Source: Strigamia acuminata (lineage: Eukaryota). Taken from it: a stretch of 64,000 bases of DNA. Position numbers and translations under genes: made by a program. The notes beneath the pieces were generated by a model, which was not told the DNA's origin, searched no databases, and saw only the letters and a program-made list of their open reading frames with translations. The stretch spans positions 27,776,001-27,840,000 of the forward strand of contig OX442314.1 in NCBI GenBank assembly GCA_949358305.1, written 5' to 3'. Positions within the stretch are counted from its first letter, which is position 1, and each line of letters begins with the position of its first letter. Below, piece after piece: positions 27,201 to 58,132 of this stretch.

Positions 27201-30200
27201 GGTCTAGCGACGGCGTACAACTCGGGCCAACGAGTCGCCACGTCCATTATAACGATAATGTACGCATTTTTATTTCCCGTAACGGGTTTTGGGCCCATCA
27301 CATCGACAGTTAAACAATCAAAAGGCGCGTAAGGCCCTAAGAAAATAGTTTCGAATGGTGATTTACTCCTCGGCTTGCACGCTTGACATCGCTGACATTG
27401 GTGGACAAAAAGAGCAATATCTTTTTTCATCCCTGTCCAGTGAAAAAGCTGTGTAGCACGATAGAGTGTTCTGCTTACTCCCGCATGGCTTGCAAGCGGG
27501 TGCCCGTGTAACAACCACAGCACGCGACCGATTAAGGAAGCAGGTATTACTACCTTTACTGCGGTGTCCGATTCACTCAAGTCATCTTGGTGATTTGGGT
27601 GATGTTTCACCAAAAGGCCGTCATCCAATAGATAATCTATGGATTCGTGTGCATAACGACGCTTCTGCCTTCTGGTTAAGTTGGGCGGATATTTTCCTGT
27701 CAGTACGAATCTAGCTCTGTCCTGACATTTTTTGTTTAATTTTTGTTGCACAATTATTTCCTCCCTTGTTGGGGGATTGCTTTTCATTTGCTTGCCGACA
27801 CGAGCGTGGAAGGCGCTTAGAAGCGAGTCATTTATTCTCTGCTCTAGCTTAAATTCCTTCTTTGCATTTGGGTAATTGTCAGCAGCTGGTTGGTATAACC
27901 GCGTCCAGAATCCACAGAATTTTACGTCTGCCGGAGACGCGGTGGGAATTTCATTCATCTTCCTTAAATCCCAACGGTGACAACTCGTAGGGCAATAAAT
28001 GATGCGGGAGTCATCCTCGCCATCATCGTCAGCGTCGATTGGATCTGACACTGGTGCCCGTGACAGAGCGTCAGCCACGACGTTATATTTGCCGGGCTTG
28101 TATTGAATGGTCAAGTCGCATGCCATCAGTTCTAACTGCCATCTGGCTAGTCGACCGGCTGGCTCCTTTAATTTCATCAGCCATTGTAACGCTTGATGAT
28201 CTGTGTGGACCACAAATTTGGTATATTCGAGATAATCTCTGAATTTCCTTATGGCCCACACAACGGCCAAACACTCCAACTCGGTGGCATTGTAATTTTT
28301 TTCAGCGCCTTGGAGTTTGCGACTTATAAACATGCACGGCAGGTCTTGTTCGACTCCGTCGCGCACGTGTGTTTGAAGCAACGCGGCTCCCAACCCAACT
28401 CTGCTGGCGTCCGTATGTAATATGAACGGCCGGTTTAGGTCGGGTAGAGGCATTACGCCGACTTTCGTCAGCATCCTCTTTATCGCATTAAATGCGATGT
28501 TGCACTCATTTGACCATACAAATTCGTTTTCATTCTTCAGGAGGTCGGTAACTGGGGCTGCCACTTCAGCTAGACCCGGTAGCAACCTGCCGAAGAAGTT
28601 TATCATTCCCATAAACCGTTGGACACCTTTAACGTCCTCGGGTGGTGGGAAACGATTAATCGCATCGATTTTTTCGGGGCCAATAGCTAAACCATTGAAT
28701 CCAATGCGATAACCCAGGAAGGCAAGCTCCTTTCGACAGAACTTGCTCTTGCCCGGGTGAACGTGTAACCCAGCTTTTGCCAGCCGGGTGAGCACTTGGT
28801 CGATGTGCTCAATGTGCTCTTTGAATGTTTTGGAGGCAATAACTATGTCATCTAGGTATGCCCACACAAACTGATGCAGGATATCACCCAATACGCTTTC
28901 GATTAGTCTCTGAAAGGTACTGGGAGCGTTCACTAAACCAAATGGCATGACGTTGAACATCAACCGTCCAATTGGCGAGTAAAATGCTGTTTTTATCTTA
29001 TCCTCTGGCCTCATCTCAACTTGCCAGTATCCCTTCGACAGATCCATCGTTGTAACCCAAGAAAAGGGGCTAAGCTCTCTCAAAATGGATTCGATAGACG
29101 GCATCTGTATGGGATCTATCTCTGTCACCGCGTTTAATGGGCGGTAATCAATGCATAGGCGTGGGTCCGAGCCCGGGCGCATCACGAGCACAACTCGCGT
29201 CGCGTATTCTCCCTGGGCCTCGGAGACAATGCCACTGTCTAGCATTTCTTGGCACATTTTTTGCACTATTTCACGTTTTTGCGGGTTCATTCCCTTATAC
29301 GCAACTCGTATAGGTTTATTATCCGTCAATTTAATTTCGTGAATAGCCCTATTCGTTCGGCCCGGTTTTTTCGACAGGATCCCCTCATATTTAAGTAGGA
29401 CCCTTCGTAGAGCTGCCGCTTCGTTTAATTCTAAAGCGGCGTCGGCGACAAGCGTTTCCACTACATTGTCCCGTTGCAATTCTGTTACGAATGCTTTAAA
29501 ATCGTAGTCTTGAACGAATTTCTTTAGGCCTTTCTCCCACTGTGTCTTGTCGGCCGCTTCTTTTACAAGAGCTGGTGGCACGACAATTGCGGGTCTTTCC
29601 TTGTCATTTCTGATATAATTCCAAGATTTCGTTATTGGATTTGGTTGTATTTCCATTGACGCCATGAGGTCTAAGCCCAACAGAAAAATTCTGTCGCATG
29701 TGGGCAGGACCAGGAAAGGGTGCTGTTCTACCCCTCCGAGCCACTCCATGGTCAATAATATAAATCCTTTTGGACGCGCCATTCCGTTGGCGGTTTTTAG
29801 ACGTATATTTTTATTAACGCCTTTTATCTTATCGGCGAGACCCAATGATGCTACTATGTCTTCGGAAACGAACGAGCGATCTGCTCCCGAGTCTAATAGT
29901 CCCATAATTTTTTCGCGTTCTATTGTCATGGGCAGCATACATAGGCGGCTGGTGTATTCGACCGCCACGTTGCACATGAAAACACGAAATTCTTCTGTCT
30001 CTTCGACTACTTGAGGTAATTCTTCAAGCAGTAGGTTCGGTTCTTCCGCCTCAGCGTTTGCGGTGATTACCTGCAAAGCGTTGTTGGCCCTGTCTTGAAT
30101 TTGGGCGTTGGCTATGTCACTACCCATTTCTTTGACTGGTGGCGGCTTATCGAACCCTTTGTTAAACCCCTTCTTCTTCATGAATGGCGCAGACGGTCGA

Positions 30201-33200
30201 GAAGTTATTTCTTCGCCGCCTGCGCTGACTCGTTTTTTGACTCGTTTTTTGCCATGGCGAGTTTAATCTCTGCCATCTGCTTCATTATCGCGTCAAACTT
30301 CGCGTCTTCTTTCGCTGTTCTTGGGCACTCTTTGGAGTAGTGGCCCGGTTGGTTACACTTGAAACAGCGAATATTTGATTTGTCTCTTGGGGCTTCAGTC
30401 GATTTTTTCTTTTCAGGGTCTGCTTTCGACGGTGGCGTGTAATTTTTTCGAAAATACTTCGGAATTCGGCCGGCATTTGGTTTTAACCTGGCGCGAAATT
30501 CTTCTACCGCTCTATCTCGATGGATGAGATGTACTAGCGGTCCTTCCTCATCGCAACCCGTTGATAAGGTATCGCGATAGCTTCGTATTTCTTCGTCCGT
30601 CGAATAATCGTCTTTTTCTTCTTTTTCGTCTGATTTTCCGGCATCTTGTCCGGCTTCCTCCCCCTCCTTGACCTCCTCCAGTGTCGCTTGCATGGCTGAC
30701 GCTGTCGGTGCCTTTTTAGGGGCGGCCAAAGGGTTGGAAGGCAGCGTGAATGTCAGTTTATTTTTTATTTGCAAACCAACGCTAGCTTCTGCCAGCTCCA
30801 TTATACCGCTAAGATATTCAGTAGGGCGCATAATCTTATCTGTCCCCCCATATCTTTCCGCACTCAACTTGAGACGGTTTGCGGTTGCTGCTTTCTCCGC
30901 TTCTGGTAAAGCGGAATAATACCTCTTCTCGATATCTATCGTGTTCTCGAACAGGAAGGCGCTCATCTCCTCGTAGCTGCCTCCTGTCGGTGCCCTTTCT
31001 TCAAGTAACACCCGTTGCGAGTACTCCGACAAACCGCCGAGGAAGAAAAGGTTGAATCCCGTGGCATGAAATTCCATCGGGGCCTTTTCAAACAACAATC
31101 TGGCGCGAATGTCGTAATCCATTATGGTTTCACCAGGCATCTGGCGAAAACCTCGCATCTTTCGGCTCACCTCTTCGGGTGTCTCGCCGTAGCGCAGGTC
31201 GAATCTCATTAAAAAGTCGTCCCAATTGACGCCTTTCAATCCTTGGTACCACTCACGTGCCGAGCCTGTCATTAGCTCGACAATACCGTGGGTGAGCATG
31301 TCTCCTACGGTGGCTTTAGTGGCAGTCTTAATTCGAATTACTTCGTCAAGGAAGCGATCTCCCGCTTTCCATGACCCGTCGAAACGGTTCTGAATATAAA
31401 ACTGCCACCTAATATTCCCGGTAATACTCATGGTGTCACGTCGGGAGACAGCGTATTTTTTCTTTACGCGGTCGCCAGTGCTACGATTACGATCGTTTCG
31501 TTTGCTCAGATCGATTCCCTCGGCTTTTAACGAGCCAAGTAGTGCTCTTCCAAGCTCTCCCATCGTATACTGCCGACCCGTCGAATCGGTAAACGCGCTT
31601 TGTCGGGGAAGGTCCTGAAACTCCTCCCGTCGGTGGTCGCTATTTTCCGATCGACGTCGTTTCTCTCTATCACGCGGAGAGTTGGATCTCTTCCGGCGAT
31701 TACTTGATTTATCCTTTCGTCTGTCGTCGTTGGATGAGGGGTCGGAGCTGGGGTCGGGGGACGGTGAGCGGCGTGGCGGGTTGCGCCGTGAAGAGTTTGA
31801 CTCTTTCCGGCCCCTACGACGGTCGTCACGTTCCTTTTCCCTGCGTTCATCGCGTTCTCTTTCCCTTCGTCTTTCTCCGGAACCTCTCTCCGAATCGTGA
31901 TGACTGGGTGCATTTGACTCCAGTCCATCTGACGACGAATCACTATTTCCGTAGTGATAATATTTCGGTCTTTCATCGCGTTTGCCTTCTTCTCGCGAAA
32001 AGGTGCGATCATGCGATTGTCTCCTTGACGACTCGTCGTCTTCAAGGATGGGCACTGGTTGTTGCCACTCAGTCCCTTGCGGATTATCATGCTGTTGGCT
32101 TGTGAGAGCTTGCTCTTCATTTCGCTTAGCATTATTAGCGTTGATTAACCGCGTTATCGCATTATTTGTGGCTGAATCGAGAGCTTGCATGCGGGGCCGA
32201 GTTTGTTGTTCTCTGGCCGACGCATCTCTTTTGCGCGGAGTAGCTGGCGTTGCCCTCTCCGGCTGGGGTTTGGGTTTGGCCTTCGGCGTGCGCTTTGGGT
32301 CTCCCTCTAGGCTCTCGTCGGACAGCTCGGATGAACTGACCTCTGGTTTGCGAACGGATTTCGGGTCATCTCGTCGCAATCTGGCCATAAATGCTCGCTC
32401 TGCTTCTTGTTGCGAGTGGAAAGCATATCGATGTGCTCTCAGGGCTCGGTCAACTATTTCTACCTCCTCGGGAGTAGTCGGATTGGGCTGGGTTCTGCCG
32501 TACTCGAGAGCTTGCGCTTCTCTTTCCGCCAGCTTCCTCCGTCTCTCGCGAATGGCTTGTCGAGCCTCATTCTCTGCATCCGCTTCAAATTGAGCGGAAT
32601 CAACCAATTGTTGAGCGTATGCACCTTCAACAATGGTGATTTGTGGGGATACACTGTGCGCTTTTAAAGCTGCACGTACGATCTGTAACGTTTCGTACAC
32701 GGTAATCTTCCCCGTCGGAAGGGTGTATCTCACTCCCTCCGCTTGTGCCAATTGCATCGCATCAATCAAGGTGCCCGAGACGCTGTAAGGCTGGCTTGAA
32801 ACACGCTTGACAGAGGACGAGTTGGACTTGTGCCCTTCAGACATTACCGAGGCTGGTCGACTGTGCGTAATTGGCGTGTTTAGTGCTGAATTCGCTGTCG
32901 TGTCGGACGCCATCCTTTGTATCGAAGACGTCGCTCTCGGATCGCTCACCTCGGTATCGTGCGTTAGGCGAGGCGATTGGTTACGGGATAAAACCTCGTT
33001 TCCGCTCGTCTCGCCGTCACGATTGGGACGCGGCGGTTTGGGGTGGGACGGATCCTCACTCCGCTCCGTCTCGTCTAATCGCTGCCTCGTTTCGGCGTGA
33101 GACGGGTGCGATGCCTCCGAAGCGCTTCGTCGGTCTGGCTTGGCCTTGCGGCGTTTTTGCCTAGACTCGTGCGCTGAGGCTTTGGGCAAAGGACCTCCCG

Positions 33201-36200
33201 ACCTCAAATGATAGTCGGTTCCTTTGCGACTACCGGCTCGTTTGTTAACGTCTGAGTCGGAGTCCGTTACTCGAGTATTATCTGCCATTTCTTGCTTTGG
33301 GTATGATGTAATCACAGGTTAGAATCAGTTATTCAACTTGATCCCGGACAGGCCCCCACGTGTCGCGCCCCTACTTCGCTCTTGCAGACTCGTGGGTTGA
33401 TTACTTAATTCGACTAACTCACTACCGCTTTGTTCGAGCGGTTTACCCAAAGAAATGATTACACAGATATAAAAGGTAAAATATAATATAGATTTATTCT
33501 GTGGGACAATGTACAGATATATCTTATATATATATATGAAAGGTAAGTAAAAGGTAAATCGGAATGGGTGATGGGAATGGAAAGGTAAAGGTAAGATGAA
33601 AGCTGGCTGGAATCGGCGAGGTCGTCTGTTGTCTCGTTCGTGTCCAAGATGGCGTCCTCGTTGTGGCAACGTGATGTCGTCTTGGGCCAACGTGGCAATA
33701 TGGCGTCCTCGACTCGTCTCTGGCTGGTCCTTCGGGCTCACGCTGGTCAGGCGCGAGTGAATGCTTAGTTAAAAGGCTTACTTCGGTCTGTTGTCTAGGT
33801 TTTTGTGTGGTGTCCGGCGATCACACAGCGGCGGACTCTTCTGGCTCCCGGCGGTCACACAGCGGCGGGAACGCTCGTCGTTGTTTTACTGCAGTTTAGG
33901 CTTGTGCGACCGTTTGTCTGCACAACTCGCTAAACTGGAGTGGTTTTTACTATTTCTAGCTGGTGTGCTAAAATAGTGTGGTAATCTTATCTCGCAGGTT
34001 ACTCTGCGGAGTTTGACACTGACCAAACGTACTCACGGTAAATTGTCCTTTGTCCTTGGTCAATCCCAGTATATTTACTTGGGCCTGATCTTGTAGGACG
34101 ACGGGTTTTACGTGTGTTTCTCGTTTGATGGTTGTGTTGGTTCTGCCCGCTCAGTGCAAGGCACATTCCTTTGCACAAAGCGGGGTTGACAGGTGACCGG
34201 AATCACCCAATGGTGGGGTGGACGAGCCATCCCCACTCCCTCAGGGCAGACGCCTGTCCATTGACTAGATGTCAATGCACTGAGGGAAGGGAGACGCGCT
34301 TGCGGCTCCCCTTACACTCGAAACGAGGTCACGAGAGAAACTCTTCGTTGACCCCGGTCCAGTCGGGTCACAACATGTTGAACCGACCACATCACCCATG
34401 GGGCTCACACCCTGTGTGTGACGGGTAGGTTACCGGTGCGGTGTGCCTATTGGCATCCCTGCAACGGGTGACAGGATTCCCCATACCCCTTGACAACACA
34501 TATTAAAGGCCAACAACCAATAATAGGGATTCTTTGTCATTTATTCGTGAGTATGCGTCCCACACCAGGATAACCAGTTCCTGAGTTACCTTGGCAAAGG
34601 CCATATCAGTCACAATACTTACAATGTGCACATGTGCGACGTCGCACAAAACTTGTCGTCGCGGTGTATGCATGCAAACATTATCGTAATGTAAACTATC
34701 TCAAACTGAGACTAGCTGACCCGAAAGTAACATGACACACACACCGCCAGTTAAATTCAAAAGTAACTTTGTTCAACAATAACCCTATTTAAATATCACA
34801 CTGGTCGGTTCCCATTGGTTAATTACCACGGAACAGCCCCGATTGGCTGTTTACACTTAAAACGTTTATCGGACGTATTTGTGTACGTCCGCCCGCCCCC
34901 TGGCGACACGTTGTCGCCCGTCAAAACCCGAAAAACTCCACAGTAACATCGCGAGTAAGAATATCGCATGTATGATGGAAGCCCGTCAAATTGTTTTTCC
35001 TTCAAGGGGGTGGCATATTTCGTTCAATCCTGATCATATAAATTGTTCACACTAACCTGATTTAGCGTGGCTAGCCGAATATATCATGAACAGTTTATGC
35101 AACTGGGATTGTATGTACAATTGCGGCCATAAAAATTGTTCATTACACTTCCACCGTTTAATACTAGGTATCTCTGAAGGATGGTGTCATGCCCTATCGA
35201 TACACTTTGCCCGTGCAGATGGGAATTGAAGCTGAATTTCAATTTATTTTGCGCAAAGTGAGTTAATTGCTTGTTTCTTTAGTTCTTGCAATTTGTTCAG
35301 TGATGCAGCAACATTACAGATATCTTGTGACAGTTATTATTGTGGATACATTCAACAAAAATAGTGATATAGTATTTCTTTTCTGCAAGTATCAATTTTT
35401 ACCTTCAAGAAACCCCTACTGTGAACCCAGCCTTATAAAGCAAACCCAATGTTATGAAGACTGTGTGTCAAAACAAACTCTAAAAAAATATCCACAATGC
35501 AGGTCTGTAAACTTAGTTCACTGAAACGATTGATAATGCTGATACTGTAGATTGTTTACTTAGATTGCCTTACATGGCTGACAAAAATCTGCCAGACTGC
35601 AGTTTAGAAGCAAACAAATCAATTGTGCTTAAAGTGTATGACGACTCCTACCATCCCGAAACATCCACGCTGGCAACAATTGAATGTGGTTGCCTAAGAC
35701 CTTGTCAAACGAGTGTTTATCACCTAATAGTGCAGACTGATACTTGTTAAGTCAAACAATTTTATTTTTACGCGTAATTATAACAAAATTAATCATCTTT
35801 TACTGTTAGATTTTGAAGATGAACCCAGTAGTAAAGATTTAGTAAGTTTGAATGTTAAAGTGATGGAAGAAACATTTGTCAGAATGACAGAAATCTACAT
35901 TTACAAAATTTCTAATTTGGTCATCGATTTTGGCGGTAATCTAGGATTTTCTTTGGGATATTCGCTCCTCTCTATAATCGAAATTGTACAATTTGTTTCG
36001 CTTTTGTGCTACAATAAGTATATTAGACCTGTTCGACTACAAACTCACATTAAAACAAAAGTCATTTATCAAATTAAAATGTCAAATTTGAAGAAAAAGG
36101 CAAAGAAGACTTTGACTCAAACCTCGCCCATGCTACAACACACGTTTTTCATTCTCATTTTGATTTGTGCTTTCTTAGCAGTTTATGTGAGCAAAGAAAG

Positions 36201-39200
36201 AATTACATTATATCTGAGTGAACCAACAAGATATGTGGTAAATATTCAAGAAAATGACACATTATATATGCCCAACATTATTGCATGTATGGACGGACCC
36301 TTAACAACACGATACAGGAACCGATATGCCAAAATTACAGGCATTCCAGAATGCAAAATTCACTTTGTTGATTTAATGAATACAACTATCAACAGAAAAA
36401 AGCCATCAATGGAAGATGTATGGCGCTATCAAACACCTATAATGGACACTGTTTCCATGGAGACTGCAGCAAGTGTAAGTGTATGGTCTGATGTCCAAAA
36501 GTGTAAAAGAACAGTAATCGTTGTCTTTATGACATGAAATCCTGGTTCTTAACCTTTGTAGCAGTTGGCAACCCTTGACTTTTGCAGTCTCTGCTCACAG
36601 CTGACCAAAGGAAAATATTTTTGAACTAAGTTTTTACTGGTGTTACTTAACCACTTCTGAAGTAGCTTTGTACCCCCAGAATATCTATCTTGCACCCCCA
36701 GGTGGTTGTGACGATTGTACTTTTGGCTGAATATACAGTATTAGCTTTTAAAGATAAACCTAACCTACAGAGATAGACTAAAACTGTGTGCTAACAAGGG
36801 GAGTGCACCAATATGACTCTTCAGTCATGACCAAAATTTTTGAGGAATTTATTTACCTTAAACAGGTCCCCAAATGTTTTTATGCCATAAACAAGCAGAA
36901 CAAGCATGAACAAGCAGTTATTTTAATGTTTGTAATTTTATATTTGTTAAAAAAGTAAAATTAATTAAATTAAAATTTTCTGATAAATATAAATATAAAT
37001 ATAAATATAAAATTACAAACATTAAAATTACTGCTAAAAATAAATAAAAAAATTAAGTAAAAATTTTCACACACATCAGGATTTGAATCTGTGTGGAAAG
37101 ATACCTAGTCCATTGCTTTAACCACTGGACCACCACTACAAACTATTGTTGTCTTCATGAAAACAGTCATGTTGGTGAACAAAGTTCTGATGTCATGACA
37201 TCATTGAATCTCAAATGATGAAATGACATCATTGAATATCAAATGATAAAATTCAACCTGGATCTTGGAACTATTTTTTACCTAGCAACAGTTGTTTACA
37301 ATATTCCTCCACAAGCCTAATTACTCCCAAAAGTGCACTATCACCATAGAAAGAGTCCGAATTTAATGTTTGATTTATTTCATTCTGCCTGTTCATGGCA
37401 TAAAAACATTTGGGCAGCTTATTTACCTGTTTGAGCTAAATAAATTCCTCAAAAATTTTGGTCATGACTCATGACCAAAGAGTCTTATTGGTGCACTCCC
37501 CTTGTAAGTGAATAACAGAATAATACGAACAAACAATGTACAGGTAACGTGATTATGTTTATTATAGAGTACGACTGGGTTCTCGGTTCTGGGCACGTGT
37601 AAACAGGCAGCATCGTCTAGTTGAGGATCTGGACGGGCCAAGGGATAGGGCTGGATTCGCGGCATCGTCACAATAACATTACATGGCCGTATTCGGCCAC
37701 GTGGCTAAAATGCACAAAGATGCGGAGAATCCTCTGCATTTACCGAGATTTATAACATCGATTATTCAATTGACGGAATCGTGATTCGAACAATACTAAA
37801 CTATAAAAATATAACAAATAAACGTTAGATATTATTCCATATTAATATTATTAGCGGGGTCAGTCACGATGGTTTTAAGGCCATCGCGGGAGGTTATTAC
37901 ACCCCCATCCGCCACATAGTCATAACAACTAAGAGCCATGACGGTCGTAGAATCATGAATGATCCATGGCTGGGAGGATTTATTGTCCGGGTATTCCTTC
38001 CCGCATGATAACAGTATAACACTTTATAAATACAACAGCAATTCAATTACTCGGGCGAGCTATTGCCGGAACACACAGACTATCCAGTATGCTAGTGCTA
38101 GATCAAACTAGTCCTTTCTACTAAATTCAATCATTTACAGGATAATTGTGCATAAAATGTATTTTCTTAACAGAACATGGGAATAAAAGCAAATGCATCT
38201 TGGAGCAAAATAGCTATGCACACAGGAACATGCTATCAATCTCGAATAGGTAATTAAAAATTTTTACAAAAATTATAATTGTATAACAATTACTACCGTC
38301 TTTCCCCGAATATAACACCATGGTGATGTATTCGAATATAACACCACCCTAGTGTTGTATTCGTATACAACACCATGGTGTTGTATTCGTCAAATAACAT
38401 GTAAGTTTGTAAAAAAAAATTGTTTCCCAAATTGATTTATAAACATGATAGCCTCTCTCTCATTGGCATCAGCATACACATATGAAACAGGTCGCGAGTT
38501 CACTGTAGCTTCCACTTCGCACAAAGTGTGGTTAGTTCTTCAAAGGTTAACACACGACGCCCCAAAATTTTCTTTAGTGATACTTTAACCGTTCTCACCA
38601 TCCTCTCCCAAAAACCCCCCCACCATGCTGCCCGCTCAACAATAAACTTCCACGTGATATGTTGTTGATCGAATGGCCCCCGTCAAGACTCTCAACTCAG
38701 CATCGGCCCTCTTAAACGTTTTGGCGTTGTCTGAATATATTATTTCTGGTACACAGCGACGAGCAAAAAATCTTCTCAACGCCATCATAAAATCTTCGGT
38801 ATTCATCGAGGACACTAATTTTAAATGAATGGCTCTTGTCACTGCGCAAGTTTTGAGAGCAATATAACACTTGTTTCTGGTACGCTGGTAAAGAGGGCCG
38901 GCAAAGTCTATCCCTACTATTTGAAAAGGGTCAGCTTTCTTGACTTGATCGATTGGCAAAGGTGCTTCTATTTGTCGCATCAAGCGTCCCTGAACCTTCC
39001 TACAAATAAAGCAATTTCGAATTATCTTTTTCACGTACAATCTCGCACGTGGAACCCAAAAACACGTTTGAACTTCCGCGAGAGTGTCGCCGAGACCCCC
39101 GTGAAAAACTCTTCGGTGTGAATCTAACACGTTCGGTCACTCGCTGTCCCCCTGGTAACACCCACGGTCCTTTGGCTTCTTTCCTAACCTCGCCCCATTC

Positions 39201-42200
39201 GACTCTCGTTCGCACGTGCAGCAGATGGTGGTCGTCAAACGCGCAGTCAACTTGGCTCAATATGGAATCTGTCTCGACTCGTCGTCCCACTTTTATCGAA
39301 TTAATTACACTCGGGAAATAACGTTGTTGTACAGCTCCAATCCAGTAACGTTCGGCGTGGAGCAGCTCGTCTAATGACAATGGTGAACCATTGCATTCGT
39401 TTTGTTTCAAATTGTCTGTGAATCGTCGCACCCACCCGGTTATGCGCAACAACCTCGTCCACGAACTGCACGTGTTTAAATCAATCAAAAGTTCCTTCAA
39501 TGGTGGTTCTTTATCAACTACGACATTGATTTGTTAGTCGGCTTTGTCTTCGAATTCGTATTCAATGTCTATTTGTGGCCAAGTGTTCTCGTTTTGTGAT
39601 AACCATTTTGGCCCCTTCAACCAAATTTGACTATCCACCATCTTTTGAGCGTCTATTCCCCGAGTGAGCAAATCAGCCGGATTTTCTCGGCCTGGCACGT
39701 GTCTCCATTCCACATCTGGAGCATTGTTGCGGATTTCTTCGATTCGTCGTGTCACGAATAAGTCTGTATGTCCGTTTATCTGCACTATCCAAGCCAAAAC
39801 AATTGTAGAGTCAGTCCAACAAACCACTCGTGATGCTGGCAATTGACTCAACCAGACCACCAGACGTGACGTCAACAAGGCACCCATCAATTCCAGACGC
39901 GGAAGCGTTATTGTCTTGACGGGGGCAATCCTGGACTTGGACAAAATAAACGAAATATGATTATTACACTCGTCTCTTGTTTTTGAATATGCGACGACTC
40001 CGTAGGCCAACGGACTTGCGTCACAAAACAAATGAATTTCCGCATTAGAATTGTCCAATCCAAATCCAATCCATCTTGGTAAATTAACATGTTGCAAATC
40101 TGGTATTTGACGTTTCCAATCGTTCCATTTCTTTTCTTCTGTTGTCGACAGTTTGTCATTCCAACCCAATCCTAATTTCCACAAACTTTAGAAAATCATT
40201 TTGCCTGTTCTAGAGAATGGGGCACAGAATCCGAGTGGATCGAAAATGCTGGCAACGAGTCGGATTACCTGACGTTTCGTTTCGCCCTCTAGTAATTGTA
40301 ACTTCATTATTTTGCTCATTTCCAAACTTAAGCAGTTTTTTTTAACGTCCCAAATTTGCCCAAAAACTTTTGTGTATTTTTTTGGGTCCTCCACACTTCC
40401 ATTCATTGCCGTCTGAACTTGGTCTGAATTTGAAATCCACTTGGTGAGTTTCAATGTGTGCCTCGCTCAAAATGGTGGTGATCTCTTGGCAGGTTCTTTG
40501 CAATTTATTCTTATCAGGTTGGCTATCAATGAAGTCATCAACGTAAAATTTATCATCTACCTGTTCCACCGTGTCTTTGAATTAATCCTCAAACTTTTTT
40601 ATACGCTCGTCAATGGTGGCGTTCAGCAGGAAAGGGCTCGGCGTCGCTCCGAACAGCACACGTGTGTATCGCAGTATTCGTAGTCGTATGGACCCCTTTC
40701 CGTCCCACTCCACGTGCAACCAAAAAATCCTCAAACAGTCCCTGTCTTCGACATGCACTTCAATCTGGTGAAACGCCTTTTCCACATCTCGGGTGGCTGC
40801 AAATATGTAAGCTCGAAAATTAATTAAAACGTTGATCAGTTCGGACAACAAATTGGGTCCCGTAAAAAGACAGTCATTTAGCGATTTATTGTGTGCCCCG
40901 TGAGATGAAGCGTCGCAAACCACACGCAACTTAGTAGTTTCACGATTTTCTTTTATGACGGGGAGTGAGGTAAATAATAACAGTTTTTTCCTTTTTCAGC
41001 TTCAAATGGCATTTTTTCTAAGATTCCCTCGGCGAGTTGAGCTTCGATCACTGCTTTATACTGTTCGTACATTTTTAAATCTTGTTTGAATTTCCTTACT
41101 AAATTCCAAAATCGTCGTAACGCTACTGTATAATTATCGGCTAACTCAGATTTATTTATGAGCCAAGGCAGCTTCACTTCGTAACGCGTCCCGTTCCAAC
41201 TTAATGAATTGCGAAAACTTGCCAGCGCCTGCATCTCCTCATCACACTTACTACTGTTGGACTCGTGTTTCATCCCGATGGCATCTAATTCCCAAAACAA
41301 TTGCAATTGTCTATCTAGTTTTTCCTCATAATTAACCAAATTGACCGGAACTATTAAACATTTGTTGTTGCCGCTCGAAATCCGTTCGACCCGTGGATCG
41401 TCCACCCGAACAATGTGTCCAAACCCACCAAACCGGACCCCAGTCTTTCAATTCGTCCACTAACTATCTGCCAAAAATAGTCCGTGCCCACCAAAATTGA
41501 TATTGCACCGCACCGTCACTGAACCAAATTTTCCTCAATTTGTATCCCGCGTTCGTTCAGCATGGCACGCACATCCTCGTGAACGGGTTTCGCTACGGAG
41601 CTCGTTATCCACGGCACGACGATGGCGTTGACCTCGATCCGTCCCTCCTTCCCGTTCCTCGCTCGAAGTGTGATTTGCACCTGCCTACGAATTGTTGATT
41701 TTGAGCTTTGTTCTCCGAATGGTGTGATGGTCATTTTTTGCTGGCTGGTCTCGGGCGCGTCCAATTCGTCGGCCAACTTCTCGGTGATGAAGGTTCGGTG
41801 GCTGCCACCATCAAAAAAACACTGTACCGTCTTTTGTCTCGTCTCTGACTCAACATCCACCATCAGCACCTGGAAATATAATTCATTTTTGTTAACTTCC
41901 AGCACGGCTGTTGACTTGGCTTTCTCCGTGTCGTTGTCCTCGCAGATCTGTGTGTGATGACGCCGATTGCACCTCTCGCATCTTTTTTTTGCTGCGCATT
42001 TGGTCACTCAATGCCCTTTGTCGAAGCATAAAAAGCACCGCCCCGCTCTCATCAAATTTCTCCGTTTTTTGTGGGACAGCAGTGGGCAGGCTTCGGTTGC
42101 TTGCTCGATGACCTCGCAATAAATACATTCGTTTGTGTTGATGGCGAGTGCACCCACCGATGGCAAAGTTGTTTTCTTTTTGCTCCATTCAGTGTTTTTA

Positions 42201-45200
42201 GTGAACGGAGGTCGACTCGATTTCCTTTCCTCTTGGTTCAATTCTTTGCCATAATTGTTGGCGGCTGCTGTTCGTTCCCTCAACCCGATTTGTTTATTTA
42301 AATACGCGAGGAAGGCTTTGATATCCGTTTTGACGTCATTATCGTGGCGATCTGGGCGGTAATGGCCTGCTGGTTTAACAACATCTGGGCGACAATTGCG
42401 TCCTCAAGCTTTTTTGGTTGGCTGCCGCTGTTGCCTCGTTTGCTTGACCCATCTCGGCTCTTCGTATTTCCTCTGCATGCTGAGTCAAATCCTCCGTTTG
42501 ATCGATTAATCGTTTTTGATAAATATCCGCCGTTTCTCGGTCGGCCATGTAAGGTTTAAAGCGATAAATATGGAAACACATTTTGTAAAACTTTGTAAAA
42601 TTTAATTGAATTAATTGATAGCAAGCATGCGCTAACGACAAAACGATGTAACGTGATATACATAACAATGTACAATATAAAAAGGAACAGAATGTAAATA
42701 ACAGAAATCAGAACTCTAAATCATATAACGAGATGAATGAAAACATGTTACAAAATTGATGTTAAATGTATGTGAGCGAATCATCGTGGCTACTGAAATA
42801 AAAACCACAACTGCAATGAAGTTAATCGATTGAAGTTCATCCAAAATACATAACATGCTGGCGACGAGCGTAAACGGATCGAATCCACTGTTTATCGCGG
42901 TAACCCTAATGCTTACAACATAAAAATTCGAGAGTTTACATAAAGAATTACGTCTGAAATGGGCCATTGGTTATGTCGTTGTGAATGGAGAGACGAATCA
43001 AATTTCGAATGAGGAAAAACGATGGCCACGATTGAACAGACCCGCGACGAACTCAATTCGTCCATGGACTCCAAGCGTAAAAAACTGGACGACATGCTAA
43101 AACGTAAGCGCAACGAACTCGTCCTGCAAATCCAATTAGAACGGGACCAACTGCTCGCGGAAATCGTGCAAGTTTGCACCGAACAACCGAATGGTGCAAC
43201 TCGAACGAGCGAATTTACTCGTGGCGCTTGAGGAAGGATTCAAAAACGACAACACGAATCGCCTGGCGCAACTGAAGAAGAGTTTGAAACGTAAGCAGGA
43301 CGTGGACTCGAGCAACGAGAAGAACTTTGAGAAGTGGTTCACCAAATTGGCCAAAAACAAGAAATCGATTAATTACGTGGATTACTGGCGAGCTAATGTA
43401 GACAGACGTCAAACTGACGAGATTGAAAACCTCAACATGAACAGATTGCGTGTGCAAATTGCTCTAGATAGCTTAAATTTGTACACGGATATTGTGAATC
43501 AATGTCTGACATTGAGAGGCCAACAAGAGGAAATCAACCTTGTGCACGATGGAGTTCAAGAAAATCTGCTAAATGAACGAGATGACATCGTGGGAGTCAA
43601 AGGGATGTTTCAGCATGACAAAGAGAAATTATTCGAGCAAATTCGATTCAACTGTTGCGCCCATTACTTCCTTGAAAACAATTTAGGCGACAATATGATT
43701 GCAATCCGAGCGGACAACTTCGCTGTCAACATGACCTTGTACGGAAAAGGTTTACTCGACAACTCCTGTGTGAATCGCGAGCCGTATTTAGCTCCTGCCA
43801 AGCAGCCCGCCATGAATCTGGGCCAAGAACAAGAGTTTTCCATGCATGATTGGCAAAAAGTGATTTCAGCCGTCCTTAACAAAGCGTAACTAGAATTGAA
43901 CCAATCGCCGCAACTGCTTGGTGTAATAGACTGGTTTTGGAGTCATGCCGCCGAAGACTTGTACTACGAACTAAACGCCACGGAACAGGTGTTTTATAGT
44001 CGCATCGGTGAAAAGAAGGTTGTCGTCAGTCATCTAAAGTTCGAGCACCAAGTCAAAGCTATACAATTCAACATAGAAAACCTGCTCAAAACGATCGCGA
44101 AAATTGTGCGACCGCTAATTTGTGAGCAAGGTTACACAGTGCTGCAAACGAAACGACCCAACATTGAGTTTTGCATTGCTGGACTTCAAGTGGGTCACAA
44201 CTCGGATGTTGAGCAGTTAACGTACTCACTAAATAGCTTGAAGAAAAAACCGCAAGAGACTGAACACATGCTGCATAAATTAATTTGCAACAAATTGGAT
44301 GTGGTGGGTGACATAAAAGTGAAGAAAAAATTGATTTGCATCGACCAACGTGCGACCGAGGCAAAACATGTCAGCCAGAGAATCGAATTCGGCGTCGCAA
44401 CTGCGGTCGACGAACCCCAGAACCATAGGATCGAAATAGGCGAACGTTTTAGTGAGATAATCGAAATGACCAAACGCACGAGCGTCGAATTGAAGCTCGG
44501 CACAAATACGAGCTGTACAGGCGTGCGAGCATCGAGCATCCACATCGGGATTGCACAAACAACGAGATCAACGAGCAACGAAGCAACGACAACAACAACA
44601 ATAACAACAGCAACAACAACAGCAACAACAATAACAACAGCAACAACAACAGCAACAACAATAACAACAGCAACAGAAAATGTAAAGGAAATTAGCAAGC
44701 TAGATTTCCGGGGAGATGTAAGGTTTAAAGCGATAAATATGGAAACACATTTTGTAAAACTTTGTAAAATTTAATTGAATTAATTGATAGCAAGCATGCG
44801 CTAACGACAAAACGATGTAACGTGATATACATAACAATGTACAATATAAAAAGGAACAGAATGTAAATAACAGAAATCAGAACTCTAAATCATATAACGA
44901 GATGAATGAAAACATGTTACAAAATTGATGTTAAATGTATGTGAGCGAATCATCGTGGCTACTGAAATAAAAACCACAACTGCAATGAAGTTAATCGATT
45001 GAAGTTCATCCAAAATACATAACAGGCCACAGCTTCGTCATCATCGGCGATTAAATTGCTTATTCTTTCGTCTAATCCTGCCAAAATTTCCTTCTTGGCT
45101 AGGAGTTGGGCCTTGTGTCGAGCCAATTTTTTCAAATCGACCGGCACCTCAGCGAGTAGGCCGCCTGTCGCGTTAGTCAGTCGGGTGCACGCCGTTCTCG

Positions 45201-48200
45201 CGGTCGTGCGATTTTGCTTCAACTTGTCTATTTCCGAAATTTCGGCCATTTTACACGCAAAATACATTTAACACTCACGTTTAACACAATTTTTCAGGCC
45301 GGTTTAAATTAATGTTTCCGGGTTTCGGCACCATGTGAAATCCAGTAGCGCAAATGTTGTAAAGTTCTCCTTTTTGGTGAAGTAATGTTTCAGGTTTAAA
45401 AAATGTTCGGTTTTTTTCAGTGTTTGAGTTTTTCAGTGGTTGAATACAATAAATTTCTAGGTGCTCAGCAAGAGCAGCTCTCCTCGTTTAAGGTGAAATG
45501 TGTACTACTTTATTCATGTTAAGAAACGAAGTTATATGCAAAAAATAATTGGTTGTTCTCAGAAATGTGAACAAAAGACAAAAAAAAAAGTCAAAAACCC
45601 TAATACAATACAAACGTCACCACATCTGGTGAAAATTATAAATTATCAGAAAACATAACAAAGACTCACTTTTTCCCTTCAAAATTTCACAGAAAGCAAT
45701 TAAATCCCAAAATACCATCACCAATTTAATTAAAATCAAATTCATTAAAACCCTAGTTTTCACAAGCATATACACGAACGCTCACGTCCTAAAAACATTA
45801 TTTTTATTTCATCAGCAAAAAAAAAATTGGATTATATGGATCGATTTCAGTTTTTTCAAACATCCCAATCCGAAATGTACGGATAAAAATTTGGAATATC
45901 CAATCCGATTAAAAAAAACGGATTGCTTTGAGGCCATCTGAAACCGATTCAATCCAATCCGAATTCGGTTTGAATCAGATTGCATTCGATCCGACCCCAC
46001 CCTTAAATAACACTAACTTGAATTCACACATTTCTAAACAACCCTGTTTGCACCACTGCACAACACACCTTCAATAAACAAATTTGTTAAATGTGTATGT
46101 TTAATATGTAAAATCCAGTGCACGTTTCGGTAGCGTTTTGGAAGCGTGCACTGTACGTCTTTCATACTTTTCTAAAAATTCGAATATAACACCATGGTGT
46201 TATAGCTGAAGTGGTGATATATTCGAATTTTTGCTCAATGTTTACAAACTTGCCATTTTGAGCAAAACTCGAATACAACACAATGGTGTTATTTTCGGGG
46301 GAAGACGGTAGTGTAATGACATTATTTTCTTAGAACCACTAACGTATGCAGGAGTTGCTTCAGCAATATTTTTTAGTTTTCGACCGAACAAAGATCAAAT
46401 CTGTCAGCAAAATGAGTACGAGGTAATGAACACATTCCATTTGTCATCAACTCTTGAATTTTGCACGGGACTCGAATAAATACACAAGTTGCACAATACT
46501 TATCCACTGGGCGGACAAGAATCGCCGTCAAGAGTCATAGTAATTCATCATTTTGATAAATTACTAAAGACATTTGCAGTAAGCACTGAGATGAAATGTA
46601 CTGTCACGTGCATAGTTTTCATCCCTTTTCTAATTTATTAGATTTTCTCATTTTATTATTTTTCTAATTTAACCTATTTTTATTTCTATTATTTCTGCAA
46701 GTGATCTTTTATAATGTATGCGCAGATACTTCTTTGCGCATCACATTATTTTCTGATTCATCTTTAGTTCTGCCCCACCCCTGATCACAATTAACATTAC
46801 CTGCCAATCATGTGATCAGAGCTGATTTCTGGGCTAACAGGCATGTAAAATTCACTTTCTGGCTTGATTGTCGACAGAATACATCTCTCTGGAATTTCAG
46901 TTAGTTAGTCACTTTTCTTTTAAACCCTGGCACAACACAGAACCTTGGTTAAAACCCAAGTCATCTGCTAGTGCATTTAAAGGTGGATTTCACAACTGAA
47001 TAAGCCATTTCTTTGTGCCTTAAACAAGCGCACTCCATCCAATTTCTAACAGTATCGTGCCTATTTCCCCACTATGTTAAGCCATGCTTACTGATCATTC
47101 TCCATCCCTAATGAAGTTTGAGACCCGAGTCAAACCCTTTCTTTTCGGTTAGTCAACACTAACAAAACACTCAAATCTTGCATGTACAAAATAGTGTTGT
47201 AAACTTCAGCGAATTGGGATTTCTCGACCGCCTGACGTCCTTATTAAATGGCGGCCATCTTTGGGACTACCCACAAACCTGGACCCACGCGCGAACTTCC
47301 ACTTGCGCGTAGTAAAGTTATTTAAATCCACCACCAACCGGATTGAACGTGACAGTACTTACACCAGCTTGTATTTTTGTTAATTGTAGGGGTGTTTGAT
47401 CAGAATTGACTTCATGCTAAATATCAAGAATACGATAACTGTAGTTTTCTTTCTGTAGGTGTACTTTAAACAAAGCGAAGCAACAATTCCATCAATTCCC
47501 TCAATACTAAGAAGCAGAAGAAGTATTAAAAGAGACACCTTTACCATTCTCACATTCAAAATGTTTAAAGTATGTGTGCAGACAATTATTTAAACAAAAC
47601 TGCTAAATCAATTGTTTTAATTTAGACCATTCGATTAAATCTGAAATCTCAACCTTGCCTTGACCATGACAAATACATGAGATGCCAAGATGATTGCTAC
47701 GAACAAAAGATTTATAATATAATTCAGTGCAAGTGAGTATTTCTTTTTCTTTTTATATGTATGTGACATTTAGGGAGTTACTGTACGAGTGCTGTCATCA
47801 CTTTTCACACTTGTAAAAATCTGTGTTTTGGACATTAAGAAAACCAACAGATGAAATTTTTAAACTTTACGTGATGTAGTTTGCAATACATGTTATTTAA
47901 ACATTTTTAGGTTACCATTTTTGGTCAACATCAATAAGAATAATTGCACCAACTTTCAAGACATTAAAACTTCATTGGCATCGTTCATAAACAGTTCATT
48001 AACTACCGATACAATGATTGACTGCGGTTGCCATCCCCCTTGTGAAGAGCCAGTGTTTGACACATTCGTTTTCTTTCAAGACACAAATGCATGGCCACTC
48101 AACATTCTCGCTATAATTCCAATGAACAACATAATTGAAAAGTTTAAGCAAATATTATCTTACACTGAAGTTGCATTGTGCTGCGACATTGGAAATTGTT

Positions 48201-50495: not shown

Positions 50496-51005
50496 TTACT
50501 GCCCATTTCTTTCGGCATCCCAAGGAGCAAAACTCATGAAAGAGTACAATCGTGCGGGAGAACGTGCAACTGCTTCACTAATCAACAAATGTTGAAATGT
50601 GTTGCACTCAGTGTTCCGGTTCAACTCCAACAAATCGTAAACGGTTTCGTCGTCCAAATGTTGCAGTTTAATCTTCTGCAATAATCGAACGGCAGCACGC
50701 TCTCTATTACGATCGCCGTTGCATTTCCACTTGAAAATGCACCGAGCAATCGCATTGCAGCGCATTTCAGATTCACTCAACAATTGAATGCTTTCATTCC
50801 CTGCTAGTGCCTCAATGTTACTCAGAAATTGTAATAATTTACAATCTCGTCGGCAGAGATCGTATTGAGTGGCCAAACTCCAAACTTTCGGGAACGTTTC
50901 CACACTGACGTCATCAGCTAATCGGTCCCAGCAATGGCAAAGCAAATCATGAATTCGCATTAAATGACAGGTGGAAATTAACTCTGTCAGCAGACGGTAA
51001 GTCAC
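50496..51005 (-). pseudogene. BTB/BACK-domain-like fragment, copy 2
   Basis: Paralog of 6653-7149, open frame but with a ~13-aa internal deletion. Confidence 0.5.
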
Positions 51006-53514
51006 GAACCACTCATTACAATTCTCAGAAATCTCATGAATTATTTAAAATACAGAGTAGTAATTACTTGTCAACTTTCACAAAACATCAATATAGCTGC
51101 AATGCGGTGTTTTTGAGTGGATCGAGTGCCACGTTTTCACCTCAGTGGACTTTAAAACCGTATGTATTTTTTCATATCTATATTCAATTCATTATGAGCT
51201 TATGAGAGAGATATTCAATCATATTCGAGTTTTGCAAATCTGGATCAAATCATAGTAAAAAAAAGCACTGGATTTGCAAAATAACATTCAAATTTATGTG
51301 AATCCCATTCTCTCAATACTATCAATAGTCAGTATTTCAACAAGAATGTAATTATCACACGATTTTAAGTTCTGTTTTTTTTTAATGAAAAACGTCAGTT
51401 GCATTATTTTCGGATTGCTGTGACAACCGAAGCTACGACATTTGCCCGAATGCACAGTAACGTGTTTTGAAAGGTTCCTGAATAGACCAATCAGAACGAG
51501 CAGTGTAGCATGGGTTGCCATCAAGCAGAGCAAAACTGGTATTGTGCTCCCCTACCCAGGTAGTATTCCCTTCCACCTTGGCACAAGAGGTGCCCCCTTA
51601 AGACTCTGAATTTCATGGGCCCCTAATTCCAAAAATAAAATATTGTGACGGTATCGTCTTACCCCTGGTAACCTGGGGTGGAACGCATTCTCACGTAAAA
51701 TAAGACAAGGACTCCAGATTGTTGGGTTGTTGTCCTTTAATCGTTGTCTAGGGATTTGAGTCTCCAGTCTACCCACGTGTTGGCGAAGGCACGCCACACC
51801 AGCAACCGACTTGTCACACAGAGAGGGATCCCCATGAATGACGTGGCCGGTTGGACATAACTATTCTGCTGTACTCACCTGTACAGCCCATGCCCATGCA
51901 ACTGCTTATGGAGGCTGTGGTGCTATTGACGTCTCACCACTGAGCGTCGCAGTGGTGAATAGGGAGGAAAGCTGAGTCAGCACAGAGCACAACTGCTTTT
52001 GCTAGCTTCAGGACTTCACTTCACATGTCTGTCTCAGTTGAGACCCAGCGCTCTTTTCTCTCCCTGCACCACTCAGCTCCCTCCTTCTCCGTACTGGGTA
52101 ATCCAACTCCGCGAGGAAGGTTGACCTTGGGGCTATTGGGCGGAGTGTGGTAGTGCCGCAAGTCATAGTCGGGTGGCCAAGCGGCCACAAAATTAAGCAA
52201 TTGCAAAGGGACACAGTCTATACTGTGCTAAAACTTAGAACTATGGGTGCATCCGGAGTAAGATAACAGAATGTTTGGTTTGTTTATTTAGATGAGGTAG
52301 TGTGAGTTGAGAGTGAGGTTGTTGTTGTTGTTTGTATTTGCTGTGAGTATTGATTTGTGATCCCAGAATTATGAGATACTCTATGATGTAGGAACATATA
52401 TTCCAACTGCCAAAAAGTTTACTGAAATAATGAAATATGGATATACAAGTACTGCTGTTGCTTCTACATTGCTGTTGCAGTTTTTATAACTTAATATTAA
52501 TATTTTATGGTGTTTACACTTTCAAACCAAAATTATAAATTCGATTTGGAAGAAACCTGTCAGGAGAAAATAATAACACGGGAAATGAGGCATCATTTTG
52601 ACAAGCTAGAATTAAAAAACACAAAGTCTTGGAGTTGTTTTTGAGATTTTAGTTGGATTTTACGAGAATCGTACACTGCAAAAAAATTTGGATTTTCAAA
52701 AAAAAAGTCATTGGAAATTTAATGGTGAAATTGGATAAATTCCAGTTTGGAAATATAATAGAAAGGAAATGGGAAATATTTTATAGAAAGTTGAATTTCC
52801 GCAAATTTACAACACTGAAAGATGATGTAAGTTTTTGTTAAATGTATGGAAAGCTAATGTAAATTAGGTTTTCTAATTAAAATTTATCTAAATTTTCAAC
52901 ACTGAATGATGATGTTGCAAATTATTGTAATTGTATGGAATGTTAATGTAAATTAGATTTGGAAATTTGTATTTCCATTTATTTCACAAGCCTAAAAATT
53001 AATGACTAAAGATCCTAAGTTTCCAGCTTGTAAAATTTATGGGTTTATCACTAGGTGGCGAACATAATTCAAAACTAATTCAAAATTTATATTTATTAAA
53101 TATGGGATTGGTTTTATCATTTCTACTTCAACAAATAATTAGATAATTATTGTTAGAGTTAGATAAATTAAAAAGTTGACACAAATTTTGTAGTGTAACA
53201 TTTTAATTTAATTCTAGAATTTGTTACACCATCATATCAATGGGAGTTTTTATCACTACCTTCAGTTGATTTTGCTCATTTTTTGCATTAGGCTATGATT
53301 ATAGCCTTGGTTTATGAATTCAGGATTCAAGATTATTGGATTCAAGATTATTGGATTCAAGATTCAAGAATGAATTCAGGATTTAGGATTCAGAAACAAA
53401 TTCAGGATTCAGGATTCAGAATTTTTATTAAAAAAGAAATAATCAAATTTTATATTTGGAAACTTGTTATTTACTGATGGGAAACTCATATTTTACATTT
53501 GGAAATCTTAACTT

Positions 53515-55848
53515 TGTGACGATTGACTTTACGAGATACAAATTGCTAGAAATTAGAGCAAGAACTCGTGTAAAAGTGTAAAAATACGGAGGCTTGTGAT
53601 TTTTCAAATCATATGACAGTTTATTACAAATGGGAATTATATAAAAACTATGCCTACAAATGGCTAAGTTAACTTCAAGTTAAACTATACAATCGGTCGG
53701 CAAAAGCCCTAAAATAATATCACTTGCGGTTTTCAGTCGGACAAATAAGAATATGTAACGGTCTTATTGTCGGGACGTAAAAGATGTCATCTTAGTATGG
53801 ATTTTCGTGGTTCCTGGGCTAATTCTGAAAGGGGTGTAATGGTTAGACTTGTGTGAATTATATCCGAGAGGTGCGGTTGACTTTTCTGCAGTCGTCACAC
53901 ATGTAATTATTATACGGTTAATAATTACAAAGCGTGGTCATAAATATGACGAAATAAGTTGAATAAATATTCATGTAAATTCGATAGAATTCCACATGAT
54001 ATTGTATTCACGAAGCGAGATAAAATAACTGTAAAAATAAAGAATAAATTAAAATAGCGCCAAGCTATTTTTGCCCCAAGTGCAATCAACATCAAAATAA
54101 TAATTAAGATGTTCCATCGTCCAACAACGAATTGAATCAGAAGTTTCTCGCAGGAAGGGTTATCCATTGCCGGGAAATTACTCCACTCGGTTCTGGCTGG
54201 CGGGAGAATAACCGGGAAATTACTCCGCTCGGTTACCCTGATAATGTGTCTGTGAAATAATAAATACTCCACTCTAGATACTACATTACCAATGCGTCTG
54301 TGAATTTCACTCCACTCTAGATTCTGCATTCTACAACGGGATGTTGGCATGAAGCGGAGGGAGTGCGTCTGTGGGTTGTACCCCACTCTAGATACTACAC
54401 TTAAATGCAAGTAAACTTACGATTTCTACAACGGGATGTTGGCATGAAGAGGCGGGCAGTGCGTCTGTGAGTCTTCTACTCACTCTAGATTCTTACACTA
54501 AATAACTGGTATTTCTACAACGGACTGTTGGATCGACGAGAAGTATAATAAGCGCTCAAGTAACAAGTAACAAAACAGAAAACAGGACAAGAGCATGATA
54601 TATCCGGTTTACACGGAATATACAGGGTGGAACAAAAGTCTGGATCCCTACTAAATATTTCTGAAAGTGGTAACAATGCATCTAATTCAATGATGGCAAA
54701 GTATTAAAGTTGGGTGGGGCAATCTTTTGGTGACCCGAAATTTGACCTTGAGATGTTCCTTCAAGGTCATTTGAAAATTATCTCGGAAACCGTTAGAGAT
54801 AGACAGAAATTTCCAATTGTAAACTTGTAGACCATCATTTGTTTAGTCTAAAAATGACTAATTCTCAAATCTTTTGTACTAAAAGATTTTAAGAAAATCG
54901 CAATTGAAAAAGTAGTTTTGAAAAGAAAAAGTCATAAAAAAATTTGGTTTTCTATCCATATCTCTGCAACGGTGCCAGATATGCAAATTCCAACCAGGAG
55001 AATCGATTTTTTTGGGTCATTTTACATCTAATCAGCACATTTTTGGCACTTTTCCAAATTTTGGCCATGTTATTCTTGGACTTGTGTCTACTTTTTCAAT
55101 TGCGATTTTCTTAAAATCTTTTAGTACAAAAGATTTGAGAATTAGTCATTTTTAGACTAAACAAATGATGGTCTACAAGTTTACAATTGGAAATTTCTGT
55201 CTATCTCTAACGGTTTCCGAGATAATTTTCAAATGACCTTGAAGGAACATCTCAAAGTCAAATTTCGGGTCACCAAAAGATTGCTCCACCCAACTTTAAT
55301 ACTTTGCCATCATTGAATTAGATGCATTGTTACCACTTTCAGAAATATTTAGTAGGGATCCAGACTTTTGTTCCACCCTGTATACTCGTACTGGACAATA
55401 GGCTGATCATTGATCCAATGGGATCACTGGTCACCTAAATCCTTCCAATCCTAGGCTCTAGAAGTGGATAGCCAGGACATAGTCTTCTCTTAGGTCCGTT
55501 CTAAGAACTGGATACGCAGGACACATTTCGGATTAAGTCTCTGATTATAATCCGTAATGGAATTCTATTCACGGTGGGTGGTGAGGGACATCTACATCTA
55601 CACCAGGTGTGAAGTTTATACATAATTCAATAGAATTATGTAGTAAACTAAATAAAACAACATTAAAACATATTCAACATGTTTAAGAACTGTCTGAGAT
55701 AAAGTGGATTAATATATAAATGATAATTTATATATTAAATCACTTAGAATGATCGAAATTCAAAATTAACGCTACAACACGAGAACGCCATCTATTGACG
55801 AAATAATCCTCCTTAACCAGCAAAGTGTATGACAGTGTAACCGTCACA
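53515..55848. mobile_element. Solo LTR related to the LARD LTR
   Basis: tgtgacg...cgtcaca termini, TSD actt, and internal ~80-90-bp tandem repeats (cactctagat...). Confidence 0.8.
54623..55380. mobile_element. Tc1/mariner-like foldback MITE
   Basis: TA|CAGGGTG...CACCCTG|TA, with ~290-bp near-perfect inverted arms. Confidence 0.9.
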
Positions 55849-57006: not shown

Positions 57007-57494
57007 ATAATAAACATAGTCATGTCCGTTGTATCGTAAGTTCGTATTATTCAGTAGTTATAATTCACTTAGCACACAATAGTTTAGCTCGGTTAGATTT
57101 GTATTATTTACCTACCAAAAAGTAGAATCGTCACACTCACTCAAAAACAACCATGATAAATCATACTTTTGAAATATCAATATTTCATTATAATTTTATG
57201 ACTTTAGTTCCTCTTTTACTGTTGCTCACAAATTGAAAACAAACATTATTTTTGAAAATTACATTTCTATATTTTGGTATAAAATTTTTTTTTCATGGAA
57301 AATTCAGTTGGAAACAAATTAATTTTTGAAGTTTTACAACCATAAATATTTATGGGAAAAACAAATTAAATTAAATAAAAATTTTAATCCAAAAAGACAA
57401 GTTTATTAATTTTTTTGATCATTTATGTACCATCGATTGTTAAACTACATACAAGTTACGTACTTTTATCTTTTATCCTTGATTTGTAGACAAA

Positions 57495-58132
57495 ATGCCC
57501 GTTCCTAAAGCTTTGCGCATTCGCCGGATCCGCATTCGTACTCGCCAATTTGTGCGACAAGAATTGCAAACTTCATTGTCGGGCAAAGACAGTTTGCAAT
57601 ATATAAACAAGGTTGTCGAGAACACTGGAATAGTTCGTGCAGTTTGGTTGGTTGGTTGGTTTGTTTGTTTCGGCATTTGCGGTTATCAAACATGGGAAAG
57701 ATTACAATTCTACATGTCTGGACCCTTCAAAGTTGAAATTGATTTTGTTCCAATTCAAGAAAGTAGACTCAATGAAGCTAGATTTATGGCTCTTGATACT
57801 CCTCTGATGTCGGAGTACTGGGACAAAATACCAGAAGGTAATTCAATTGATGATGTAAAAGAGAGAATGAGAGCTTGCAGAAACCCAGTGAGAGGAATCA
57901 TTTCGAAGAAAGTCAAAGTTAAAAATTACACACACTTGTGGGAGAATTCCAACATTTCAGAAAATATGCAGCACTTTAAGTTCAGACAAGTAAGTAACCT
58001 TGGATAAATAAAAGAGCTATATGAAAAAATATTGTTGCCAGTATTTTGCTAATTACTACTTTATCAGGGCAAAACTATATTACTTGAAACCAAGATGAGA
58101 AGTGGCAATTACACAAACCAGGAGACAACAGT
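57495..58132 (+). pseudogene. Second DEG/ENaC gene copy: exon 1 and start of exon 2, disrupted by an LTR
   Basis: Close paralog of 9251-10260. The exon 2 sequence breaks off at gagacaacagt|tgttgcg. Confidence 0.85.

Follow-up and report, generated by a model that had tools for sequence, protein, structure and literature searches.

A recently inserted LTR mini-retrotransposon in Strigamia acuminata carries a broken tektin-1 segment, probably captured from mRNA

The window, a 64,000-nucleotide stretch of Strigamia acuminata DNA, contains a compact element on its + strand at positions 42548–45024. Its 5′ LTR (42548–42855, +) and 3′ LTR (44717–45024, +) are each 308 bp long, have TG..CA ends, and are identical to one another (0 mismatches over 308 bp, with a 95% upper bound of about 1% divergence). 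TATAAA lies at 42676 and AATAAA at 42797 in the 5′ LTR, a short polypurine tract of seven bases, GGGGAGA (44710–44716, +), directly precedes the 3′ LTR, and the whole is bounded by a direct repeat, GGCCA (42543–42547 and 45025–45029). With two TG..CA LTRs and a target-site duplication, it is an LTR retroelement, and an earlier note, made from the sequence by eye, had rightly described a complete mini-element with these LTRs, this duplication, and this purine run. The motif TGGCGACGAG (42859–42868, +) sits where a primer-binding site is expected, 3 nt past the 5′ LTR; its assignment as such, also proposed in that note, is by position. We take it to be a putative tRNA-Ser type, and the 64-kb window holds no tRNA gene with which it could be paired. 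The + strand ORFs of the interior gave no Pfam match to Gag or Pol, and the element does not appear from its sequence to carry the gag and pol of an autonomous LTR retrotransposon.

The insertion is recent, as the identical LTRs and the depth of short public contigs indicate. In the contigs of runs X1 and X2, from which the window itself may derive and which therefore give no independent evidence, LTR depth is roughly double that of the flanking sequence (500 versus 258–301 in X1 and 247 versus 121–123 in X2), and contigs of both runs span the left insertion junction without differences. The mini-element interrupts the gag-like front of a decayed element on the − strand (38636–45249; DUF1758 protease, E 2.1e-6) that we take, by its domains, to be BEL/Pao-like. 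Several other features share the window. A long BEL/Pao-like pol ORF lies at 2955–6356 (+), and at 59382–61991 (+) there is another Gypsy-like gag, which contains a zinc knuckle. A Gypsy-type element at 11191–34375 (−) has 1015-bp LTRs that are 99.6% alike, gag at 30205–33318, pol at 26453–30262, and an extra ORF of 929 aa downstream of pol (12242–15031) with no Pfam match at E ≤ 0.01. Nested within it at 16897–26562 (−) are two identical 1915-bp repeats with a PBS-like start resembling that of the host element, tandem repeats near 23800–24650, and a 501-aa ORF without a Pfam match (19406–20911), and there is no pol-sized ORF; this may be a further LTR element that is non-autonomous and carries unusual cargo. 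Pieces of a DEG/ENaC amiloride-sensitive sodium channel (PF00858) occur at 9239–9763, 35731–36537, and 57483–58007 (+). The segment 6680–9785 is 93–96% like 50568–52946 and 57295–58029, forming a local duplicated cluster that includes DEG/ENaC pieces, and a weak BACK-domain match at 50496–51044 (−; E 0.0097) marks a BTB-kelch-like fragment in the duplicated block. A 300-bp inverted repeat pair at 54616–55387, 99% alike, is MITE-like.

The interior of the mini-element is one non-retroviral coding region that begins with an ATG at 43022 and has a Thr-coding repeat near its end, as the earlier note had described, and it is broken by a frameshift near 43182–43190 and by a premature stop codon at 43887–43889 (+), where the presumed parent contig has a different letter. 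Its first 112 codons (43022–43358, +), in which the frameshift falls, are not tektin and have related sequence in other contigs. The captured tektin-1 follows on the sense strand (43359–44345, +), in frame with the parts on both sides, and corresponds to approximately residues 64–400 of a 416-aa protein of Strigamia maritima; the 5′ switch point into tektin is placed only to about 43359–43380. A non-tektin, in-frame tail (44346–44583, +), common to other copies up to about 44400, leads into an ACA-rich tandem repeat (44584–44675, +; period 30, 3.1 copies) that is read as poly-Thr. From 43191 to 44774 the frame is open except for the one stop, spanning both switch points. Lacking about 63 residues of its N terminus and 16 of its C terminus, and with a stop inside, the tektin cargo is not an intact full-length gene. 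Its coding sequence passes directly into the foreign tail and has no poly(A) tail, leaving a partial host mRNA between element sequences, and six shared bases, offset by one, are found just 3′ of the switch at 44345, a possible microsimilarity of the kind seen where templates switch. The non-tektin front matched nothing among 216 candidates of 197–2000 aa, which is weak evidence, and had no Pfam match; the tail had no usable Atlas match and no Pfam match; and neither has anything similar elsewhere in the window.

The cargo, judged from its sequence, is tektin-1, an axonemal coiled-coil filament protein. Both halves of the ORF match the Pfam family Tektin (PF03148; E 6.7e-19 and 2e-15), and when the stop is read through as X, the match reaches E 1.6e-39 with 136 bits against a cut-off of 34.3, covering 50–375 of the 383 profile positions. 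A tektin of S. maritima, the sole homologue returned among 6880 candidates, is identical in 206 of 337 columns (61%). Every one of the 21 PDB sequence matches at E ≤ 1 is a tektin; among those with a name, Tektin-1 (E 1e-20) ranks above Tektin-2 (8e-15), and the top named matches of the S. maritima protein itself are tektin-1, so that the ranking of matches points to tektin-1 as the closest paralogue. Against a representative set, the first tektin half gave 29 matches, among which only the S. maritima protein exceeded 42% identity and none was a copy of the family; a metagenome scan gave 22 pattern matches, 0 of them confirmed. An AlphaFold model of 43890–44579 has four helices and no strand at a mean pLDDT of 73; it was built on an alignment of tektins and is not independent of it, and its last 60 residues are mostly of low confidence. 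With this model, each of the 35 rows listed by Foldseek is a doublet-microtubule entry, the best at E 0.005 and none at E ≤ 0.001.

The earlier note had read the same region as a possible truncated STAT, a piece of an immune transcription factor that had been captured and could serve as a decoy. Its general idea of an intronless host coding sequence captured in an LTR mini-element stands, with tektin-1 in place of STAT as the gene. The four peptide blocks on which it relied are present in the translation, but blocks 1 and 2, together with the opening 7 residues of block 3, are in register with tektin (identities to the S. maritima protein of 4/6, 9/17, 5/13, 1/4, and 4/7), and the remainder of block 3 and block 4 fall in the non-tektin tail, which has no database match. 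Six contigs of X3 differ from the window at three bases that fall in the 'LQVG' block and the codon after it, and the motif is thus a change of this copy. The profile search that the note had itself proposed returned no STAT family in Pfam at E ≤ 10, whether with single pieces or with the X read-through, which is the outcome it had named as contradicting its reading. The model of the region that holds most of the blocks consists of helices without a strand and therefore offers no β-sandwich DNA-binding domain, and the structural comparison, also suggested there, listed doublet-microtubule entries throughout. A truncated STAT was rejected on the Pfam result together with the tektin match (E 1.6e-39) and the 61% identity to tektin. 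The front of STAT and tektin are both long helical coils, a likely source of the likeness seen by eye, for which no tool gave support. The decoy function finds no support either, and we assign a vanishingly small probability to a STAT decoy.

Public contigs hold what is likely the parent gene, about 84% like the element's cargo, which answers one part of the search for a parent and intact copies that the earlier note had recommended. Two contigs of X3, at depths of 12–15, match 43521–43645 and 43648–44258 with 100 differences from the window and an extra 15-base piece that falls where the S. maritima tektin has five more residues. At their ends at 43645, 43648, and 44258, these contigs continue for 177, 79, and 188 bases in sequence that does not resemble the window's, and a contig of X4 matches 44257–44345 and then reads like the native tektin C terminus of S. 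maritima. We infer two lost introns, one at 43645–43648 (+), where two contigs of single-copy depth leave the element sequence on either side, and one at 44257–44259 (+), where one contig leaves after 44258 and another starts at 44257; the second departure point comes after an AG at a codon boundary. Such a pattern would be expected if the gene were interrupted near 43646 and 44258 by introns that the element lacks, the splice letters not being displayed. Over 90 codons, a comparison that leaves out the stop codon and covers listed differences only, the presumed parent is identical to S. maritima tektin at 72 and the window at 58, counts that make a centipede related to S. maritima the likely host, and parent and window differ at 32 places, 12 of them synonymous and 20 not. 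Among the differences listed, S. maritima agrees with the parent contig at 15 of 18 codons with a changed amino acid, with the window at 1, and with neither at 2; because of the 15, the changes are placed on the element's branch. The parent contig thus behaves as a constrained gene would and the element copy as a drifting one.

Diverged relatives of the cargo are present as well. At 80% likeness, 206, 205, 97, and 3 contigs of X1 to X4 were placed on 4 kb including the flanks. In X3, several distinct contigs with depths of 18–105 lie over 44040–44401, six of them covering 44193–44197, and some cross the 3′ switch at 44345 into the tail found in the window. Deletion joints connect 43544 to 44040 or 44071 (about 500 bases) and 43412 to 44080 (667 bases). 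X1 and X2 contain another long copy, which has 59 differences in 464 and, like the window, is without the 15 bases, whereas the form deleted from 43544 keeps their counterpart, so that there must be two lineages or more. At 42851–42859, further contigs connect the leader of the mini-element to different upstream sequence. The common leader and common 3′ switch suggest that the relatives, too, sit between LTRs. No second whole LTR–tektin–LTR copy was seen among the short contigs of X1 to X4, and X3 has no contig on the LTRs or on the long non-parent copy; such contigs show presence, not absence, and we claim no polymorphism. Contig depth, even summed, gives no copy number.

Our favoured reading, which we hold to be likely, is an LTR mini-retrotransposon whose broken, intron-free copy of most of tektin-1 probably came from a spliced host mRNA through template switching, and which has probably been copied again since then as part of a non-autonomous family. 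The capture is likely old and probably took place in a centipede. A tektin-1 mRNA would have been packaged together with LTR-element RNA, plausibly in the male germ line. Tektins are present in sperm flagella. Reverse transcriptase would then have switched onto the mRNA near codon 64 and off it near codon 400, and the product would be of the kind found here, in which a PBS-like motif and a purine tract lie between two LTRs and nothing matches Gag or Pol. Mobilized in trans by enzymes of another element, it would have increased in number and given rise both to long lineages and to ones with internal deletions, as its cargo drifted by about 10% at amino-acid-changing sites. The copy described here inserted recently into the BEL/Pao-like element. 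No autonomous partner was found, front and tail matching nothing in the window or in the databases. The tektin is then best read as a putative passenger, and the frameshift and stop would bar a full fusion protein from this copy. The similar contigs could instead be unrelated tektin pseudogene pieces or local duplications beside a one-off, LTR-flanked retrocopy; the LTR type occurs about two times in all, which this element accounts for, and the contigs show no second full element. Against this stand the non-tektin leader, 3′ switch, and 15-base loss that relatives have in common. Moreover, identical LTRs around a cargo 15–16% diverged from its parent are incompatible with a single recent capture and require repeated re-copying after an old one, and we consider a one-off event very improbable.

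A harder question is whether a passenger is all that the tektin piece has been. Pairwise dN/dS against the presumed parent is 0.43 (90 codons; 32 differences among those listed), near the 0.5 cutoff for a neutral copy compared with a constrained parent that is given in the cited part of Tan et al. (2016, PMC5131818). The cargo has 1 stop where about 4.5 are expected (P ~0.06). In-frame indels make up 5 of 9 listed events (P 0.14), a tally in which a 10-base loss counts as out of frame and a 9-base gap is left out, an alternative tally giving 6 of 9 (P 0.04). These comparisons suggest no clear constraint on the cargo; they do not demonstrate selection, and they are compatible with an open frame having been selected in the past. 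The stop deficit, and the fact that the fusion is in frame on either side, hint that drift may not be the whole story. Selection could have kept the piece in frame through much of the family's history, with this copy only recently broken, either because an open frame shields the element's RNA from decay or because a coiled-coil fusion protein aids the element. The frame that stays open from 43191 to 44774 bar one stop would accord with this, as would a common large deletion that is a multiple of three (486), a synonymous share of 12/32 versus 21–27% expected (P 0.025–0.14, differences listed), and the functional capture by an LTR element reported for Strigamia in the cited part of PMC6673714. 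However, dN is about 0.11, nearly all of it on the element's branch, a constrained parent branch alone would give a synonymous excess, the in-frame indel share is not striking at P 0.14, the deletion derivatives lose about 160 tektin codons, and the piece is fused to no matched Gag or Pol. On balance, we regard such selection as unlikely. A bolder proposal, that a centipede LTR family domesticated the tektin coiled coil, joined in frame on either side, as a working ORF, for example for joining particles or for tracking along microtubules in sperm cells, and that such cargo is repeatedly favoured in capturing families of animals, is in our estimate a long shot.

As a putative passenger family, the tektin element offers a clear case, from a myriapod, of gene capture mediated by LTRs, and its chimera seemingly lived long as a mobile family after the capture. 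Most bilaterians surveyed have a single copy of tektin-1 (Bastin and Schneider 2019, PMC6357514); the family amplifies pieces of this normally single-copy cilia gene, and annotation risks recording false tektin paralogues. It is also a small natural test of selection on captured cargo, and its importance would be greater if the tektin frame had been kept under selection. In the literature searched, we found no published case of LTR capture of a tektin, and supplements could list one.

LTR-mediated retrocopies, including their secondary retroposition, are a published mechanism in animals (Tan et al. 2016, PMC5131818, in the part cited here). The tektin element resembles those retrocopies in that a sense-strand piece of host mRNA, cut at both ends, replaces the element's coding part between two LTRs, and perhaps in non-autonomous secondary retroposition, to which contigs crossing the common 3′ switch may point here. 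The Drosophila cases in that part of the paper are less than 1% from the parent and seemingly have at most a few insertion sites each, whereas the tektin cargo is 15–16% diverged within identical LTRs and has several lineages. Maize Bs1, as cited in the same source, is likewise an old, LTR-bounded chimera of host exons with several copies that have common switch points, but it combines three host genes and has a reported protein, whereas the tektin element has one identified gene, with an unassigned part on each side of it, and a broken copy. Compared with tektin-1 itself (PF03148; PMC6357514, part cited), the cargo is alike in sequence, motif order, and helical model, with the S. maritima tektin as its nearest protein, and differs in its stop, its foreign ends, and the missing residues (about 63 N-terminal and 16 C-terminal). 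In S. maritima, the LTR family CopiaMBD carries a host-derived domain for which binding to methylated DNA has been demonstrated (de Mendoza et al. 2019, PMC6673714). The tektin element is unlike CopiaMBD in having no Pol match and a putative passenger as its cargo, and like it in being a centipede LTR family that took up host coding sequence.
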